The notes under the pieces are model-generated. The model was given only the letters and a program-made list of their open reading frames with translations, was not told the DNA's origin and searched no databases. A stretch of DNA of 64,000 bases from positions 25,931 to 89,930 of the IMG/VR virus record IMGVR_UViG_3300005200_000008; one strand, 5' to 3'. The DNA comes from a virus (lineage: Duplodnaviria; Caudoviricetes). The translations under genes and the position numbers were made by a program. Shown here piece after piece: positions 14,122-57,890 of this stretch (its first letter is position 1; each line of letters begins with the position of its first letter).

Positions 14122-14226
14122 GGATAAAAGGCGGGAGTCGAACCCGCTCTGGAGACTCTGGGTTTACACGCCATTGTGTACTGTCCCGATACGCCTTCCC
14201 GTGCTTCCGTTACACTACAATCCTCC
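14122..14226 (-). ncRNA. tRNA-like element with enlarged anticodon domain
   Basis: D-like arm GTG-TAACGGAAG-CAC and T arm GCGGG-TTCGACT-CCCGC, but about 45 nt where the anticodon arm should be and an irregular acceptor stem. Confidence 0.4.
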
Positions 14227-14325
14227 AACCCGTCTTTCCGGGTCGCCAATGGATAATTTATACTTACCGCAACCTCGCGGGCCGTACATTAAGGACTTCC
14301 GACTCTTTATAGAAAAAGCTCAAAA

Positions 14326-38784: not shown

Positions 38785-40893
38785 GTGGAAACTACTCTTG
38801 CCAGTCCCGATGCCCCGTTTCTAATTCAAGATTTAACGCAAGGCGATGAATCGGTCGCCAAGCGTGAATTGTTTGAAAATCTTAATGAAGACGATATTGT
38901 TGCCGGTCTTAAAGTTATCAAAAATGATTTAAGCCTCAGTGAATCTACAAAAGCCGAAATATACGCGAACCTTTGGAGAATAAATTATAAACAGCGCCCT
39001 CCGACCATTGAGGAATTCCTGACCGAAGACTGGGTGGGGCCGATGTGCGAATCGCTATATCCCCATGCCCGTAATATCTTAATCGACTTTTGGAAGCAGG
39101 GTTCTCCCTATAGAAATCTGATTATGGCTATGGCAATCGGCACCGGAAAATCCACCATATCGGCCATTCATAATCTGTTTGTCACGACGCAGTTGTTTCT
39201 TATGCGTAACCCGAAAAAGTTTTTCGGTCTGGCCCCGTCAACAAGCGTTGTACAGGCTCTTATATCTTTTTCTATGGAGAAGGCAGAACAGTTATTGTTG
39301 CAGCCGTTTTTACAGATCTTGCTTACGTCGAAGCGGTATCACAGGGTAAAGCAGGAAGAACATTTGCAAAGGCATCAGGAAGACAATCCCGACAAAGTGT
39401 GCTGGACTACGGCGGGGCGTATCGGCAAACTCCAGTTTCCGAACGACATACACTATATAATCGCCTCCACCCCTTATCAATTATTAGGCTTGAATCTTAT
39501 TCACGCGACGCTTTCCGAGATTTCGTTTTTTATCGAGCGCGGTCTCTCTCCCGATTATATATGGCGTATATTTCAGGACTGTAAAGGCCGTATTCAGGCA
39601 AGGTTTGGCGCTGATAAGCGTCTGTGCGGCGTAGTACTTGATTCATCCCCCAACGATATAGATGCCAGCCCGATAGATAAATATATATTCAATGGCGAAG
39701 CGTCAAAAGACCCTAAAAATTACGTGGTTACCGGTTCGCAGTGGAAGATGTTTGAACAGGATCCGGAATTAAAAAGGATAAAAGAGAACTATCCGATATA
39801 CGCAAAGACGAAAGAAACGTTCAAAGTGTTTCGGGGAAGTTCCACGCTGCCCGCCGAAATTGTTACCGACGAAAGGGCGAAGGAATTCCCCGCCGATGAA
39901 ATACAGGAAACCCCTATCGACCTTTTAACGATCTATAAAGAAAATACGACAAAATGCGTGAAGGATTACGGCGGTTGGCCGGCAGGCACTACTGACAAAC
40001 TTATTCAGGAAACAAGCCTTATTGAAAACATATTTACCCCCCAATTAAAAAACTTTTACACTTATATTTACGCGCCTTCGACAAAATCCGCGAAAGAACT
40101 GTTATGGAACCAGGTCAGGGATAAATTCTTTATTAAGATTGGCGAGCGCAGGTACGAGTTCTACCGTTCGCCCCGTGAATTAAGGTGGCTGCATTTTGAC
40201 CAAGCCGAAACAGGCGATATTGCGGGTATCGTGGCTTCGCATCCGGAGTACGATATGGAGAAAAAGGAAATTATAATCGTCCATGATTTTACTATCGCCA
40301 TATCTCCCGGCAAAGGAAGGATAAACCTTGATGCCATTCGCACGTTTCCCGAAGACTTGCGGGATAAAGGCGGTATGGCTATTCAAAAAATCACATTCGA
40401 CCATTACGAAGCGGCGACAACATTGCAGTATCTGAAAGGACAGGGATTTGACGCGGAGCATTTTTCGGTCGATACTGACAAAAAGCCTTATTTGGATTAT
40501 GTGGCGTTAATAAATACCGGCAGGGTAAAATCTGGAAGAAATATATTTTTGAAAAACAATTTGAAATCAATCCGTGAAGTTCCTGTCGGTTCCAACAGCA
40601 AAAAAACAAAAATAGATCACCTTATTGGAAAAAATGTTTATGAAGACGGCGCCGATTGGGAACTTAGTTTAATGGGAATGAACGCGAAAGACGTAAGCGA
40701 CTGCGGTGCGGCGACGGCGTTCCTCATTATAAACAATTATAAGGGAGTACCCCGTTACACATGGAAGGATATTGTTGTAAAGAATGAAATTCCAACTCCG
40801 CAGAAATCGGAAAATAATGAAGCCTTCAAAGAAGCGTACCGTTCGCAAATGCGCGAGAATTTACAGGCGCTTGGGCTTTATATAAAAACTTAA
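38785..40893 (+). CDS. terminase large subunit
   Basis: AIGTGKST Walker A, C-terminal nuclease HFD...DIAG, TFDHYE, KDVSD motifs; likely GTG start. Confidence 0.8.
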   Translation: METTLASPDAPFLIQDLTQGDESVAKRELFENLNEDDIVAGLKVIKNDLSLSESTKAEIYANLWRINYKQRPPTIEEFLTEDWVGPMCESLYPHARNILIDFWKQGSPYRNLIMAMAIGTGKSTISAIHNLFVTTQLFLMRNPKKFFGLAPSTSVVQALISFSMEKAEQLLLQPFLQILLTSKRYHRVKQEEHLQRHQEDNPDKVCWTTAGRIGKLQFPNDIHYIIASTPYQLLGLNLIHATLSEISFFIERGLSPDYIWRIFQDCKGRIQARFGADKRLCGVVLDSSPNDIDASPIDKYIFNGEASKDPKNYVVTGSQWKMFEQDPELKRIKENYPIYAKTKETFKVFRGSSTLPAEIVTDERAKEFPADEIQETPIDLLTIYKENTTKCVKDYGGWPAGTTDKLIQETSLIENIFTPQLKNFYTYIYAPSTKSAKELLWNQVRDKFFIKIGERRYEFYRSPRELRWLHFDQAETGDIAGIVASHPEYDMEKKEIIIVHDFTIAISPGKGRINLDAIRTFPEDLRDKGGMAIQKITFDHYEAATTLQYLKGQGFDAEHFSVDTDKKPYLDYVALINTGRVKSGRNIFLKNNLKSIREVPVGSNSKKTKIDHLIGKNVYEDGADWELSLMGMNAKDVSDCGAATAFLIINNYKGVPRYTWKDIVVKNEIPTPQKSENNEAFKEAYRSQMRENLQALGLYIKT

Positions 40894-40905: not shown

Positions 40906-41538
40906 TTATAATTTTCCTAATTTTCGTCTGATTCTTAATGAAATTCTTCCGAAACCCCGATTTCTTGATCCAGTAGTAGATAATTGACTATTACAGTTTG
41001 GACAAACTAATCTTAAATTACTATGAAGGTGGTTTCTCCAATTTCCATCAATATGATCGAGAATAAAACCTAATGTTTTATTATTCCATAAATTTGAAAT
41101 ACCGCATATTGAACAGGAATAATTTTGTTCTTCTAAAATAGCTTTTTTAAAAAGACCTTTATATACCATATTTAATTCTTCATTTTCATAACTTACTTCT
41201 TTTGATACATCACTTCCTGATTTCCAACGTTTTAAAATATCGTTGTATTTGCTTAATTTTTTGTCTTTTTTAATTTTAATACATGATGAGCATAATTGTT
41301 GATTTCTGTTAGCTTCTCTTGTTTTTAATAAATTTCCACAAGAACAGTATTTGGGTTTATATGCTGGATTTTTTAATTGAATAAATTCAAGGCGTTTATC
41401 ATTAGCCCACGATTTTTGAAGATCGATTCTTTTATTTGCACATGATCTTGAACAAAATTGTGGTGTCTTTTTTCGTAATTTTCTAGACTTTCTATAATCG
41501 TCAGTAAATTCTTTTCCACAACATTTACAGATAAACAT
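40906..41538 (-). CDS. HNH endonuclease
   Basis: CSICG...LDHIDGNWRNH...NLRLVCPNCNSQ. Confidence 0.9.
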   Translation of the reverse strand: MFICKCCGKEFTDDYRKSRKLRKKTPQFCSRSCANKRIDLQKSWANDKRLEFIQLKNPAYKPKYCSCGNLLKTREANRNQQLCSSCIKIKKDKKLSKYNDILKRWKSGSDVSKEVSYENEELNMVYKGLFKKAILEEQNYSCSICGISNLWNNKTLGFILDHIDGNWRNHLHSNLRLVCPNCNSQLSTTGSRNRGFGRISLRIRRKLGKL

Positions 41539-41584
41539 TATTTGTCTCTATAAATGACTTCCGAATTGATTAATATTTATTCAA

Positions 41585-41657
41585 TGCCAGAGATGGGAAT
41601 CGCACCCATGACAAACGGATTTTCAATCCGTTGCTCTACTAGCTGAGCTACCCCGGC
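41585..41657 (-). tRNA. tRNA-Phe(GAA)
   Basis: GCCGGGG/CTCTGGC acceptor, ACGGA-TTGAAAA-TCCGT. Confidence 0.9.
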
Positions 41658-41662
41658 GAATC

Positions 41663-41733
41663 TGAGCATAGATGGACTCGAACCATCCTGAGTGGATTAA
41701 AAGTCCACGGCAGAACCTCTCTGCAATATGCTC
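41663..41733 (-). tRNA. tRNA-Lys(TTT)
   Basis: GAGCATA/TATGCTC acceptor, GTGGA-CTTTTAA-TCCAC. Confidence 0.88.
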
Positions 41734-41739
41734 ATTCTA

Positions 41740-41826
41740 CGGAACCGACAGGAATCGAACCTGCGAGTCGTATCCCTACGAACTACGGTTTTCGAGACCG
41801 TTTCCCATGCCAACTGGGTCAGTTCC
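41740..41826 (-). tRNA. tRNA-Ser(CGA)
   Basis: ACGGT-CTCGAAA-ACCGT, long variable arm, G73. Confidence 0.9.
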
Positions 41827-41833
41827 ATTAAGA

Positions 41834-41915
41834 CGGAAGGGGTGGGTTCCGACCCCACGCGCCCGAAAGCGACGGTTTAGCAAACCGCCCGTTTTGCCAA
41901 TTCACGCACCCTTCC
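41834..41915 (-). tRNA. tRNA-Ser(GCT)
   Basis: GCGGT-TTGCTAA-ACCGT, long variable arm, G73. Confidence 0.85.
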
Positions 41916-41925
41916 AAAAAAGCAT

Positions 41926-41959
41926 AAAAAAGGCGATAAACCGATGAGGTCTATCGCCT
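41926..41959 (-). terminator. attenuator terminator upstream of tRNA-Ser/Ser/Lys/Phe
   Basis: AGGCGATAGACC-TCATC-GGTTTATCGCCT-TTTTT. Confidence 0.85.
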
Positions 41960-41988
41960 AAAATTACATACCTAATTCTTATGTATGC

Positions 41989-42078
41989 TTAGACGACACC
42001 TCCGTTGAAATCGCTATGATCGCAACTAAACGATTTGGGTGAGAAGAATGAAGGTTTGGACGGCTTCAAAACATACAT
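41989..42078 (-). CDS. Ser/Lys/Phe-rich leader peptide (29 aa)
   Basis: MYVLKPSKPSFFSPKSFSCDHSDFNGGVV-stop; ATG 6 nt after the -10 box. Confidence 0.75.
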   Translation of the reverse strand: MYVLKPSKPSFFSPKSFSCDHSDFNGGVV

Positions 42079-42084
42079 AATCAT

Positions 42085-42113
42085 ATTGTCTCAAAAAATA
42101 CTTTTTTTGTCAA
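42085..42113 (-). promoter_or_regulatory. sigma70 promoter for leader A
   Basis: TTGACA-17 bp-GACAAT (TGn-extended). Confidence 0.7.
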
Positions 42114-42139
42114 GAGTATTTTTGAATAATTTTTAAAAA

Positions 42140-42225
42140 TGGGCAGGGAGGGATTCGAACCCCCATGTTTAGCACGCGGCAACTGATTTACAGTCAGCCC
42201 CCTTCACCAATTTGGATACCTGCCC
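42140..42225 (-). tRNA. tRNA-Tyr(GTA)
   Basis: GGGCAGG/CCTGCCC, GCTGA-CTGTAAA-TCAGT, long variable arm. Confidence 0.9.
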
Positions 42226-42229
42226 GTTG

Positions 42230-42302
42230 CTCCCGCAGAGGGACTTGAACCCCCAACCAACGGATTAACAATCCGCTGCTCTGCCGATTGAGCTACACGG
42301 GA
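42230..42302 (-). tRNA. tRNA-Asn(GTT)
   Basis: TCCCGTG/TGCGGGA, GCGGA-TTGTTAA-TCCGT. Confidence 0.9.
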
Positions 42303-42310
42303 ATAAAAAT

Positions 42311-42383
42311 AGCGGGAGGGGAAATCGAATCCTCAACATGACACTTTTGAGGTGTCCCTCTCTTCCAGATTGGAGTATCCCGC
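42311..42383 (-). tRNA. atypical tRNA with CAA anticodon (Leu by anticodon; short variable loop)
   Basis: GACAC-CTCAAAA-GTGTC; 6-bp acceptor GCGGGA/TCCCGC, U discriminator, irregular T stem. Confidence 0.55.
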
Positions 42384-42389
42384 CATATA

Positions 42390-42471
42390 TGCACAAGAGA
42401 GGACTTGCACCTCCACGCCCGAAGGCATTAGTTTCTAAGACTAACGCGGCTCCTAATTACGCCACTTGTGC
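42390..42471 (-). tRNA. tRNA-Leu(TAG)
   Basis: GCACAAG/CTTGTGC, TTAGT-CTTAGAA-ACTAA, long variable arm, A73. Confidence 0.9.
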
Positions 42472-42494
42472 TTAAAATCAACATTTTGGCAAAT

Positions 42495-42530
42495 AAAAAA
42501 GGCGGTTGCCCTTTATAGAGGACAACCGCC
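42495..42530 (-). terminator. attenuator terminator upstream of tRNA-Leu/Leu/Asn/Tyr
   Basis: GGCGGTTGTCC...GGGCAACCGCC-TTTTTT. Confidence 0.85.
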
Positions 42531-42559
42531 TTTTCATCCGGCTATGGATTATACCGAAT

Positions 42560-42640
42560 TCAGACTTGTCCCCTAAAATGGTAATAATAATTACCGAGGT
42601 TGAGGAATAATGAATTCAGGCACAAAACTTTCCGTTTCAT
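42560..42640 (-). CDS. Leu/Asn/Tyr-rich leader peptide (26 aa)
   Basis: MKRKVLCLNSLFLNLGNYYYHFRGQV-stop; ATG 6 nt after the -10 box. Confidence 0.75.
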   Translation of the reverse strand: MKRKVLCLNSLFLNLGNYYYHFRGQV

Positions 42641-42646
42641 ATTGCT

Positions 42647-42675
42647 ATAATACTAAAATTATAATTGTTTGTCAA
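42647..42675 (-). promoter_or_regulatory. sigma70 promoter for leader B
   Basis: TTGACA-17 bp-TATTAT. Confidence 0.75.
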
Positions 42676-42820
42676 GTGTCTTATTTAATATTTTTATTTT
42701 TTTTCAAAAAAACCTATTTTAACGATCCTCCTTTTTGTCAACGGCATTTCCGGGCAGGGTGCCGTTGACGCTTTTATTATAAAACCGGAAGTCCTTTATT
42801 ATAGGGAGGGTTGTATTTTT

Positions 42821-43495
42821 ATGAAGTTATTTACAGTTTTATTATGCTTTTTTACATTGCTGGTTACCTCATATTCTTTTTACAGTTCTGAAATTGTTTT
42901 ACCTTTTAAATTTGCTTGCGAACTGGAAAATATGACAGTTGTCGAGGATAAGCTTCTGTCCGTTAATTCCGATTTTATTGACGAAGGGTACGATTTGGAC
43001 GGCATTGTTTTATATATTAAAGAACAGTGCCACTTGGTAGGCGTAAATTACTCTTTTGCCGTTGCTTTACTGCGGGAAGAAAATTCTGCATTTTTCGGAT
43101 TGCTTGAAGGCGGGACAGTTTGCGAATATGCGTTTGAAACGTGCCACAACAATCTTGATAATGCTTCGGAAGTTGCTTCCCGCGATCTTGGCTTGTGGCA
43201 GTTAAATGACAGTTATTTGTGGGATGATTTTGTTCCAAGGCATTGGCACGGTAAAACCGATTTCGATTGGAAAAATCCGTATCATAGCACGTATGTAGCC
43301 GTTCGTCATATTAATTGGCTGTATAACGTAATTCAAGACAACTGGATTGCAAAAGGAATTCCGCAGTTTCAAAATACGTTGTATTGGGAAACGGCGATTG
43401 CTTACAATGCCGGCGTTACAAGAGTTTTAAACAAAGATATTCCTGCTTCCGCTTTAGATTACGCTTCCCGTGTCATGGAAAAGTTTTTTGAATAA
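42821..43495 (+). CDS. SLT-type lytic transglycosylase
   Basis: ALLREEN catalytic Glu, DLGLWQLN, NPY, AIAYNAG; N-terminal hydrophobic segment. Confidence 0.8.
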   Translation: MKLFTVLLCFFTLLVTSYSFYSSEIVLPFKFACELENMTVVEDKLLSVNSDFIDEGYDLDGIVLYIKEQCHLVGVNYSFAVALLREENSAFFGLLEGGTVCEYAFETCHNNLDNASEVASRDLGLWQLNDSYLWDDFVPRHWHGKTDFDWKNPYHSTYVAVRHINWLYNVIQDNWIAKGIPQFQNTLYWETAIAYNAGVTRVLNKDIPASALDYASRVMEKFFE

Positions 43496-57760: not shown

Positions 57761-57890
57761 GAAAGCGTAGCTCAGTTGGTAGAGCAATAGCAAAAATGTT
57801 CTTTCGTTGCTTTTTACTCCTACGGGATGTTGTAGACGAGAGTTACTTAATCAGGGCTGTGGGTCATTGGTTCGAGTCCAATCGTTTTCC
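57761..57890 (+). ncRNA. tRNA-Y chimera 3
   Basis: GAAAGCG/CGTTTTC acceptor, canonical D and T arms; insert TTTAC-TCC-TACG-GGA-T-GTTGTAG. Confidence 0.7.

Follow-up and report, generated by a model that had tools for sequence, protein, structure and literature searches.

Codon-matched leader frames and alternative RNA folds suggest ribosome-mediated attenuation of tRNA blocks in a Caudoviricetes phage

Phage transfer RNAs (tRNAs) are usually regarded as constitutive passengers, there to correct a mismatch in codon usage or to stand in for tRNAs that host defences have cut (PMC12409363), and the control of their genes is largely unknown. Here we describe two tRNA blocks in a virus of the Caudoviricetes, each of which is probably a self-contained cassette that works as a ribosome-mediated transcription attenuator for its own tRNA genes. 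The blocks lie in a stretch of 64,000 nucleotides (nt), positions 25,931-89,930 of the 89.9-kb virus record IMGVR_UViG_3300005200_000008, which we refer to as the window; the main locus is on the minus strand at 41585-42113. Each cassette is composed of a strong sigma-70-type promoter, a small open reading frame (ORF) at the predicted start of the transcript, an antiterminator/terminator switch, and the tRNA genes themselves. This promoter-ORF-terminator head is present on every multi-tRNA block of the record; the lone tRNAs Gln and Gly of the same record lack it.

A previous reading of the window, made from its letters alone, had proposed a leader-peptide attenuator in front of tRNA block B. 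We found the promoter, leader ORF, terminator, and tRNA order of this unit (unit B) each at the position it had been given on the minus strand (Table 1), and its count of Ser, Lys, or Phe at 11 of the 14 residues at leader positions 5-18 is correct. The promoter is near-consensus, with a -35 hexamer that is invariant across all 14 homologous units described below, and the messenger RNA is predicted to be leaderless, with the ATG at the predicted transcript start. Directly upstream, at 42675-42497, lies a second unit of identical geometry, unit A, whose leader carries Leu, Asn, and Tyr codons and precedes tRNAs for the same three amino acids; the leader peptides of A and B are unrelated. The first tRNA lies only 15 nt (unit B) or 25 nt (unit A) past the terminator stem, and no promoter fits into the gap. 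Given that the tRNAs have no other promoter, some conditional read-through of the terminators is nearly required.

To follow these features in other genomes we scanned metagenomes with a profile of the terminase, whose gene neighbours the tRNA island. Among the 35 loci recovered, tRNAs lie beside the terminase only in a group at ~80% identity. Homologous tRNA islands with both units occur in six metagenomic relatives (L001, L003, L101, L102, L103, and L104), which together with the window make up a comparison set of seven genomes and 14 leaders; a further relative, L109, contributes unit A. The leader ORF is 26-36 codons long in all 14 units, and in 12 of them its ATG lies 29-32 nt after the -35 hexamer, which places it at the predicted +1 or within 3 nt of it. 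The unit B frame is open in all seven genomes and the remaining two frames are mostly interrupted by stops; taking both units together, almost all homologues have stops in the other two frames. Indels inside the leader frames are all multiples of three, and those past the stop codon are not. The peptides themselves diverge fast, with non-synonymous changes equal to or exceeding synonymous changes in most pairs. The combination of kept frames, indels in multiples of three, and rapid peptide change argues that what matters in a leader is its composition and length, not its sequence. The homologous loci keep the frame and the codon bias along with the terminator. The order of the cassettes is A-then-B in the window (42140-42675, 41585-42113) and B-then-A in all relatives (e.g., L001 9027-10720), and the transglycosylase gene lies on the opposite side of the island in the window and in the relatives; the units therefore behave as movable cassettes.

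The codons in these leaders match the tRNAs that follow them. Against an amino-acid background taken from the phage's own long ORFs, Ser, Lys, and Phe fill 13 of the 30 positions in the window's unit B leader (43%, compared to 19% expected; binomial P 0.002), a proportion that only 4 of the 282 short ORFs of the 89.9-kb genome, our chance comparison, reach. In the window's unit A leader 11 of 25 residues are cognate (44%, compared to 17% expected), and 2 of the 282 short ORFs are as high. Over all unit A leaders, Leu, Asn, and Tyr make up 44-61% of residues where 17% is expected (binomial P 1e-3 to 2.5e-7; 0-2 of 282 short ORFs as high), and 55-61% in the five relatives that have Leu tRNAs. 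Unit B leaders are 43-73% cognate, compared to 19-55% expected (P from 1e-5 to 0.04), and one of them contains a run of 20 consecutive cognate residues. The enrichment is present in every unit and is weakest in the window's own unit B. It is also specific to the block: Leu, Asn, and Tyr account for 0-14% of B leaders, and the amino acids of the B set are underrepresented in A leaders. Scored under strict wobble rules, set A reads a fraction of 0.31-0.55 of leader A codons while set B reads 0.08-0.31; conversely, set B reads 0.36-0.66 of leader B codons while set A reads 0.00-0.14. The non-cognate residues concentrate in the first few and the last four or five codons, and the latter make up the RNA pairing strand discussed below.

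Leader content also follows tRNA content from one relative to the next. In L003 and L101, which encode four Ser tRNAs (GCU, GGA, UGA, and CGA), the leader contains AGU, UCC, UCA, and UCG, each once. In L102, which is without Ser(CGA), the codon that is UCG in L003 reads UCA, and L104, which lacks Ser(GCU), has no AGY codons in its leader at all. L103 has no Leu tRNA in block A and only 4 Leu codons in the leader, compared to 5-10 elsewhere, with several of the lost Leu positions now Pro. The rare residues Asp, Cys, His, Arg, Ile, Trp, and Thr occur in the leaders of relatives that encode the corresponding tRNAs. Unit B leaders matched to their own tRNA sets beat 5009 of 5040 permutations; for unit A this tracking is not significant, as taken up below. 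Phage codon usage, taken without the host genome, gave no insight.

Other phages served as controls. Small ORFs in the tRNA region of phage T5 show no cognate enrichment, no leader or terminator was found upstream of the tRNA cluster of the jumbo Ralstonia phage FLC4-3B, and Maribacter phage Molly_1 has no tRNA genes. That T5 and the Ralstonia jumbo phage are without the design indicates that it is not a trivial feature of phage tRNA regions. One T5 ORF, T5.070 (L112 9628-9756), lies upstream of tRNA-Cys and has 6 Cys among its 42 residues; the cysteines are paired as CxxC, like those of a zinc ribbon, and we read the resemblance to a leader as a coincidence.

Each unit, at ~145 nt, also forms a transcription unit complete from promoter to terminator, its structure is conserved, and it could in principle be an independent gene for a small RNA or for a micropeptide of 26-31 residues, the match to the tRNAs being incidental or secondary. 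There is precedent for activity in trans by the terminated RNA of an attenuator and by a leader peptide, in rnTrpL and peTrpL of Sinorhizobium (PMC6614838, PMC7298713). The peptides described here, however, change too quickly for peptides that fold or bind, no second promoter serves the tRNAs, each unit travels with its tRNA block when the A/B order is swapped, and the codon content is block-specific, with codons and tRNAs lost together. A role in trans would moreover supplement attenuation, not replace it, and we consider this the least probable of the explanations. A stand-alone small RNA gene does not fit: the promoter and terminator are there, but structure alone leaves the indels in multiples of three, the frames, and the tRNA-tracking codons unexplained. 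We also rejected the idea that the leaders are remnants of a decayed protein gene or of a tRNA; they show no homology to either, and their frames and composition are maintained.

Folding with and without ribosome-protected segments yielded alternative antiterminator and terminator folds in all 14 leaders. The terminators have GC-rich stems of 12-17 base pairs (bp) followed by T-tracts, and the terminator stays intact when the leaders are folded at full length (-14 to -29 kcal/mol). To model the switch we used RNA made only up to the terminator loop, with the 3' arm absent, and set a ribosome footprint either mid-ORF or at the ORF end. With the ribosome mid-ORF, the last 4-6 codons and the stop pair, in every one of the 14 leaders, with the terminator's whole 5' arm and loop; the part of the truncated RNA left unmasked in this stalled-ribosome fold reaches -21 to -30 kcal/mol. 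When the footprint covers the stop or the last ~8 codons (a longer stretch in L103 and L104), most leaders have fewer arm bases sequestered; unit A of L001 shows no such drop. The best upstream partner of the terminator arm is the ORF end in 13 of the 14. From these models, antiterminator and terminator are predicted to be mutually exclusive in all 14 leaders, with the antiterminator 5' strand masked by a ribosome at the stop codon.

The alignments are consistent with these folds when the fraction of cells paired is compared with slid positions. Antiterminator cells are 88% paired, compared to 32-57% when slid, and the unit B terminator is paired in 99% of cells. Five pairs of the unit B antiterminator show compensatory changes, a count reached by 10 of 500 shuffles. 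In this unit the terminator 5' arm and loop (41963-41943) are common to both structures, and the 10-bp pairing of the end of the leader with that arm described earlier (41998-41989 with 41961-41952) is indeed available; a 2-nt bulge extends it to GAGG:CCUC. The small hairpin inside the unit B ORF is paired in 88% of cells, compared to 17-43% when slid, with compensatory changes in two pairs, and is a candidate RNA polymerase pause element. Unit A has a long hairpin that joins the control-codon region with the stop region (regions 1 and 2), with 89% of cells paired and four compensatory pairs; it is predicted to act as a classical 1:2 protector.

A terminator between promoter and tRNAs might instead be overcome by an antitermination factor of the phage or the host, or be a mere leaky damper, in which case the short frames would not be sensors. 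Lambdoid phages do combine a strong promoter and terminator with processive antiterminators. This explanation accounts neither for two unrelated frames that are each written in the codons of their own block, nor for the maintenance of those frames through indels in multiples of three and the joint loss of codons and tRNAs, nor for a stop codon placed within the antiterminator strand, and we regard it as very unlikely.

The attenuator reading, by comparison, draws support from the second unit, from six relatives whose frames stay open through indels that are all multiples of three, from block-specific codons, from the tracking of tRNA content, and from antiterminators in 14 of 14 leaders. On this reading a ribosome would load on the 5'-terminal AUG and read through a checklist of codons served by the downstream tRNAs. 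If decoding is fast, the ribosome would arrive at the stop and mask the last codons, blocking the antiterminator, so that transcription would terminate and yield only the leader RNA of ~145 nt. A stall at any checklist codon, whether the tRNA is scarce, uncharged, or cleaved, would leave the 3' end of the ORF free to pair with the emerging terminator 5' arm, and RNA polymerase would enter the tRNA genes. The newly made tRNAs would end the stall and the unit would switch off, giving a demand-driven feedback.

What the switch would respond to is a separate matter. Phage tRNAs are established counters to tRNA-targeting immunity (PMC12409363), and we raise as a tentative possibility that the units are inducible counter-defence switches, their leaders listing the codons whose host tRNAs are destroyed or depleted, for example by anticodon nucleases or other tRNA-targeting immune effectors. 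If so, a long stall at one listed codon would, in the manner of an OR gate, be enough to switch on all the replacement tRNAs of the block, which would shut off as decoding recovers. The same switch could take another input, namely amino-acid starvation, sensed through charged-tRNA levels, or general translation capacity, as affected by host shut-off or a ribosome-targeting defence; in that case the phage tRNAs would belong to a wider programme of stress response or timing. Charged tRNA is what classical attenuators sense, and to a ribosome a missing, an uncharged, and a cleaved tRNA look alike. Unit B lists up to 11 amino acids, which makes it nearly a general gauge of translation speed, and ribosome-free unit B RNA is predicted to read through. 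Extra tRNA, however, does not help a cell starved of amino acids, the leaders partition cleanly by block, and the tracking of Ser isoacceptors by synonymous codons is hard to explain unless specific tRNA species matter. We therefore think an input of this kind unlikely.

Several observations weigh against attenuation as we propose it. For unit A, the permutation test of leaders against tRNA sets is not significant (968 of 5040), which we attribute to the nesting of its tRNA sets. The window's unit B leader retains Pro, Asp, Cys, and His codons though those tRNAs are gone, and its own tRNAs read only 10 of its 28 post-initiator sense codons under strict wobble; the loss of tRNAs from this block looks like a recent truncation beside the HNH endonuclease gene. 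Most checklist codons occur only once, and single control codons in classical attenuators give weak sensitivity. The energy of the antiterminator duplex beats 95% of shuffles in only 5 of 14 leaders, and the unit A antiterminator is too conserved for covariation to show. Unit B has no convincing 1:2 protector: of the 1:2/2:3/3:4 layout that the sequence-only reading had seen there, the antiterminator and terminator are borne out by folds and covariation, but the proposed 1:2 pairing of GCGAT with GTCGT is weak, and the conserved element at that place is the small local hairpin inside the ORF, which leaves the antiterminator strand unsequestered. For lack of this protector, unit B is predicted to read through when untranslated. 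The transcription start is deduced from promoter spacing only, and L003 and L109 carry a structured insert of ~110 nt that separates promoter from ATG, which means that initiation is not leaderless in every case. Finally, the seven genomes are mutually related, and statistics across them are not independent.

Table 1 Features of the two attenuator units and neighbouring genes (window coordinates).
Feature	Position	Strand	Details
Unit A promoter	42647..42675	-	TTGACA 42675-42670; 17-nt spacer; TATTAT 42652-42647
Unit A leader ORF, 26 codons + TGA	42560..42640	-	ATG 6 nt past -10; codons include 5 Leu, 3 Asn, 3 Tyr
Unit A region 1, codons 7-13 (Leu/Asn control codons)	42602..42622	-	Predicted to pair with region 2 in ribosome-free RNA
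Unit A apex hairpin over Asn-Tyr-Tyr-Tyr codons	42580..42595	-	One pair U-A to C-G in three relatives
Unit A region 2: G-rich stretch, last codons, stop, 6 nt beyond	42554..42576	-	Alternative partners: region 1 or terminator 5' arm
Unit A intrinsic terminator	42497..42534	-	About -26 to -28 kcal/mol; 5' arm + loop 42534-42513; tRNA-Leu 25 nt on
tRNA block A	42140..42471	-	Leu(UAG) 42471-42390; Leu(CAA) 42385-42309; Asn(GUU) 42302-42229; Tyr(GUA) 42225-42140
Unit B promoter, near-consensus	42085..42113	-	-35 TTGACA 42113-42108; 17-nt spacer ending TG; -10 GACAAT 42090-42085
Unit B leader ORF, 29 codons + TAA (41991-41989)	41989..42078	-	ATG 6 nt past -10; second in-frame ATG at 42084
Small hairpin inside unit B ORF, just 5' of antiterminator strand	42007..42026	-	Kept in relatives
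Unit B antiterminator 5' strand: last four codons (Gly-Gly-Val-Val) + stop	41989..42003	-	Best partner of terminator 5' arm; covariation
Small hairpin enclosed by unit B antiterminator	41966..41988	-	Fold prediction
Unit B intrinsic terminator	41931..41963	-	12-bp GC-rich stem 41959-41931; about -19 kcal/mol
T-tract of unit B terminator, abutting tRNA-Ser(GCU)	41916..41930	-	No space for promoter
tRNA block B	41585..41916	-	Ser(GCU) 41916-41832; Ser(CGA) 41827-41739; Lys(UUU) 41734-41662; Phe(GAA) 41657-41585
HNH endonuclease gene	40906..41538	-	PHROG HNH endonuclease, E value 2e-20; 46 nt past tRNA-Phe
Distant terminase large subunit gene, neighbour of tRNA island	38785-40893		Many metagenomic homologues

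The HNH gene downstream of block B has no promoter match in our scan and is probably co-transcribed with the block, in which case it would be expressed through read-through of attenuator B. Homing-type endonuclease genes lie within or at the end of the tRNA islands in more than this genome, with HNH in the window and GIY-YIG in L003 (10095-10682). A strong plus-strand terminator with a 14-bp stem (42736-42770) stands between the island and the transglycosylase gene, where it would block antisense transcription crossing the island from the terminase side.

Several unusual tRNA-like sequences turned up along the way. The ~110-nt insert of L003 (9830-9945, minus strand), with its counterpart upstream of the unit A leader in L109, folds into a closed, cloverleaf-like three-way junction (z -2.5) and matches no Rfam family; it may be a processed tRNA-like element that creates a new 5' end near the AUG. 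A conserved gap of 127-133 nt between tRNA-Ile and the next tRNA (L101 5451-5583, L102 7793-7921, L103 4920-5048, and L109 5038-5164) contains a tRNA-like acceptor stem and T-arm that are recognised neither by ARAGORN nor by Rfam at the gathering score, and further gap elements of 73-109 nt in the relatives resemble tRNAs with inserts or deletions. The window itself has tRNA-like sequences with large inserts at 57761-57890 and 14130-14300; one of the pair has clear acceptor, D, and T arms around an insert of ~60 nt, and the other lies just upstream of tRNA-Gln.

In the metagenome scan, no tRNAs lie beside the terminase in relatives of 61% identity or less, and the close contigs L004, L106, L110, and L111 have none in reach; L106 carries a reverse transcriptase and a bAvd gene there (231-1841), pointing to a diversity-generating retroelement. 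In IMG/VR, no relative emerged from a terminase search, and scans for the exact terminator motifs gave 61 loci, none of which leads into tRNAs, so that all are chance matches. Among cultured phages, the nearest terminases are only 23-28% identical, and the 1-kb stretch with both leaders matches nothing beyond its tRNA genes. A permissive Rfam scan of 41000-43000 returned the tRNAs and chance-level matches only, with no family for the leaders. Searches of a full-text library of papers found attenuators for amino-acid, synthetase, and resistance genes and none for tRNA genes.

A codon checklist wired to a terminator would mean that the supply of phage tRNAs is regulated by demand. If this is true, these phages gauge the decoding capacity of the host codon by codon and regulate their tRNA supply through ribosome feedback, a form of control not known to have been described for the tRNA genes of any organism; the units would be the first attenuators with tRNA itself as output and a natural multi-input sensor of decoding speed, and they would predict which host tRNAs are limiting or attacked in each phage-host pair. 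They also offer compact parts for synthetic tRNA-responsive switches and a rule by which annotators of uncultured phages could recognise tRNA cassettes under regulation. With two units, seven genomes, and the loss of codons alongside tRNAs, the idea can be tested directly with small synthetic constructs and no cultured phage.

The closest parallels are the enterobacterial leader-peptide attenuators (trpL, hisL, pheL, leuL, and thrL, and ilvL, which serves several amino acids). Like these, the units have an ORF with control codons close to the promoter, an intrinsic terminator ahead of the genes under control, and a predicted antiterminator that draws on the terminator 5' arm and would be hidden by a ribosome at the stop codon; in unit A a covarying 1:2 hairpin is predicted as well. 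In contrast to the enterobacterial systems, the output here is tRNAs and not biosynthetic enzymes, so that the loop would close on decoding capacity itself. The phage leaders also list from 3 to ~11 amino acids, most of them represented by a single codon or a few, with one codon per Ser isoacceptor, and they are phage-borne, with the ATG at the predicted transcript start and no Shine-Dalgarno sequence.

Leader-peptide attenuation is already applied to a component of the translation machinery, and not to biosynthesis, in the E. coli pheST attenuator, which controls phenylalanyl-tRNA synthetase. The pheST attenuator serves a protein gene and a single amino acid, however, and nothing homologous to it is present here. 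In T-box riboswitches, too, the status of a tRNA decides between terminator and antiterminator, but a T-box makes direct contact with the uncharged tRNA, by means of its specifier codon and T-box motif, and works without translation. The scan of 41000-43000 gave no match to the T-box family in Rfam, and we rejected this identity; the conserved reading frames point to the ribosome, and not to direct tRNA binding, as the sensor. A sensory short ORF at the 5' end of a leaderless message, as predicted here, is found in the polycysteine short ORFs of mycobacteria, where stalling at cognate codons remodels the downstream RNA structure (Canestrari et al., 10.1101/834739). There, the remodelling unmasks a ribosome-binding site and controls the translation of cysteine-metabolism genes, whereas in the phage units it would act on transcription termination ahead of tRNAs.

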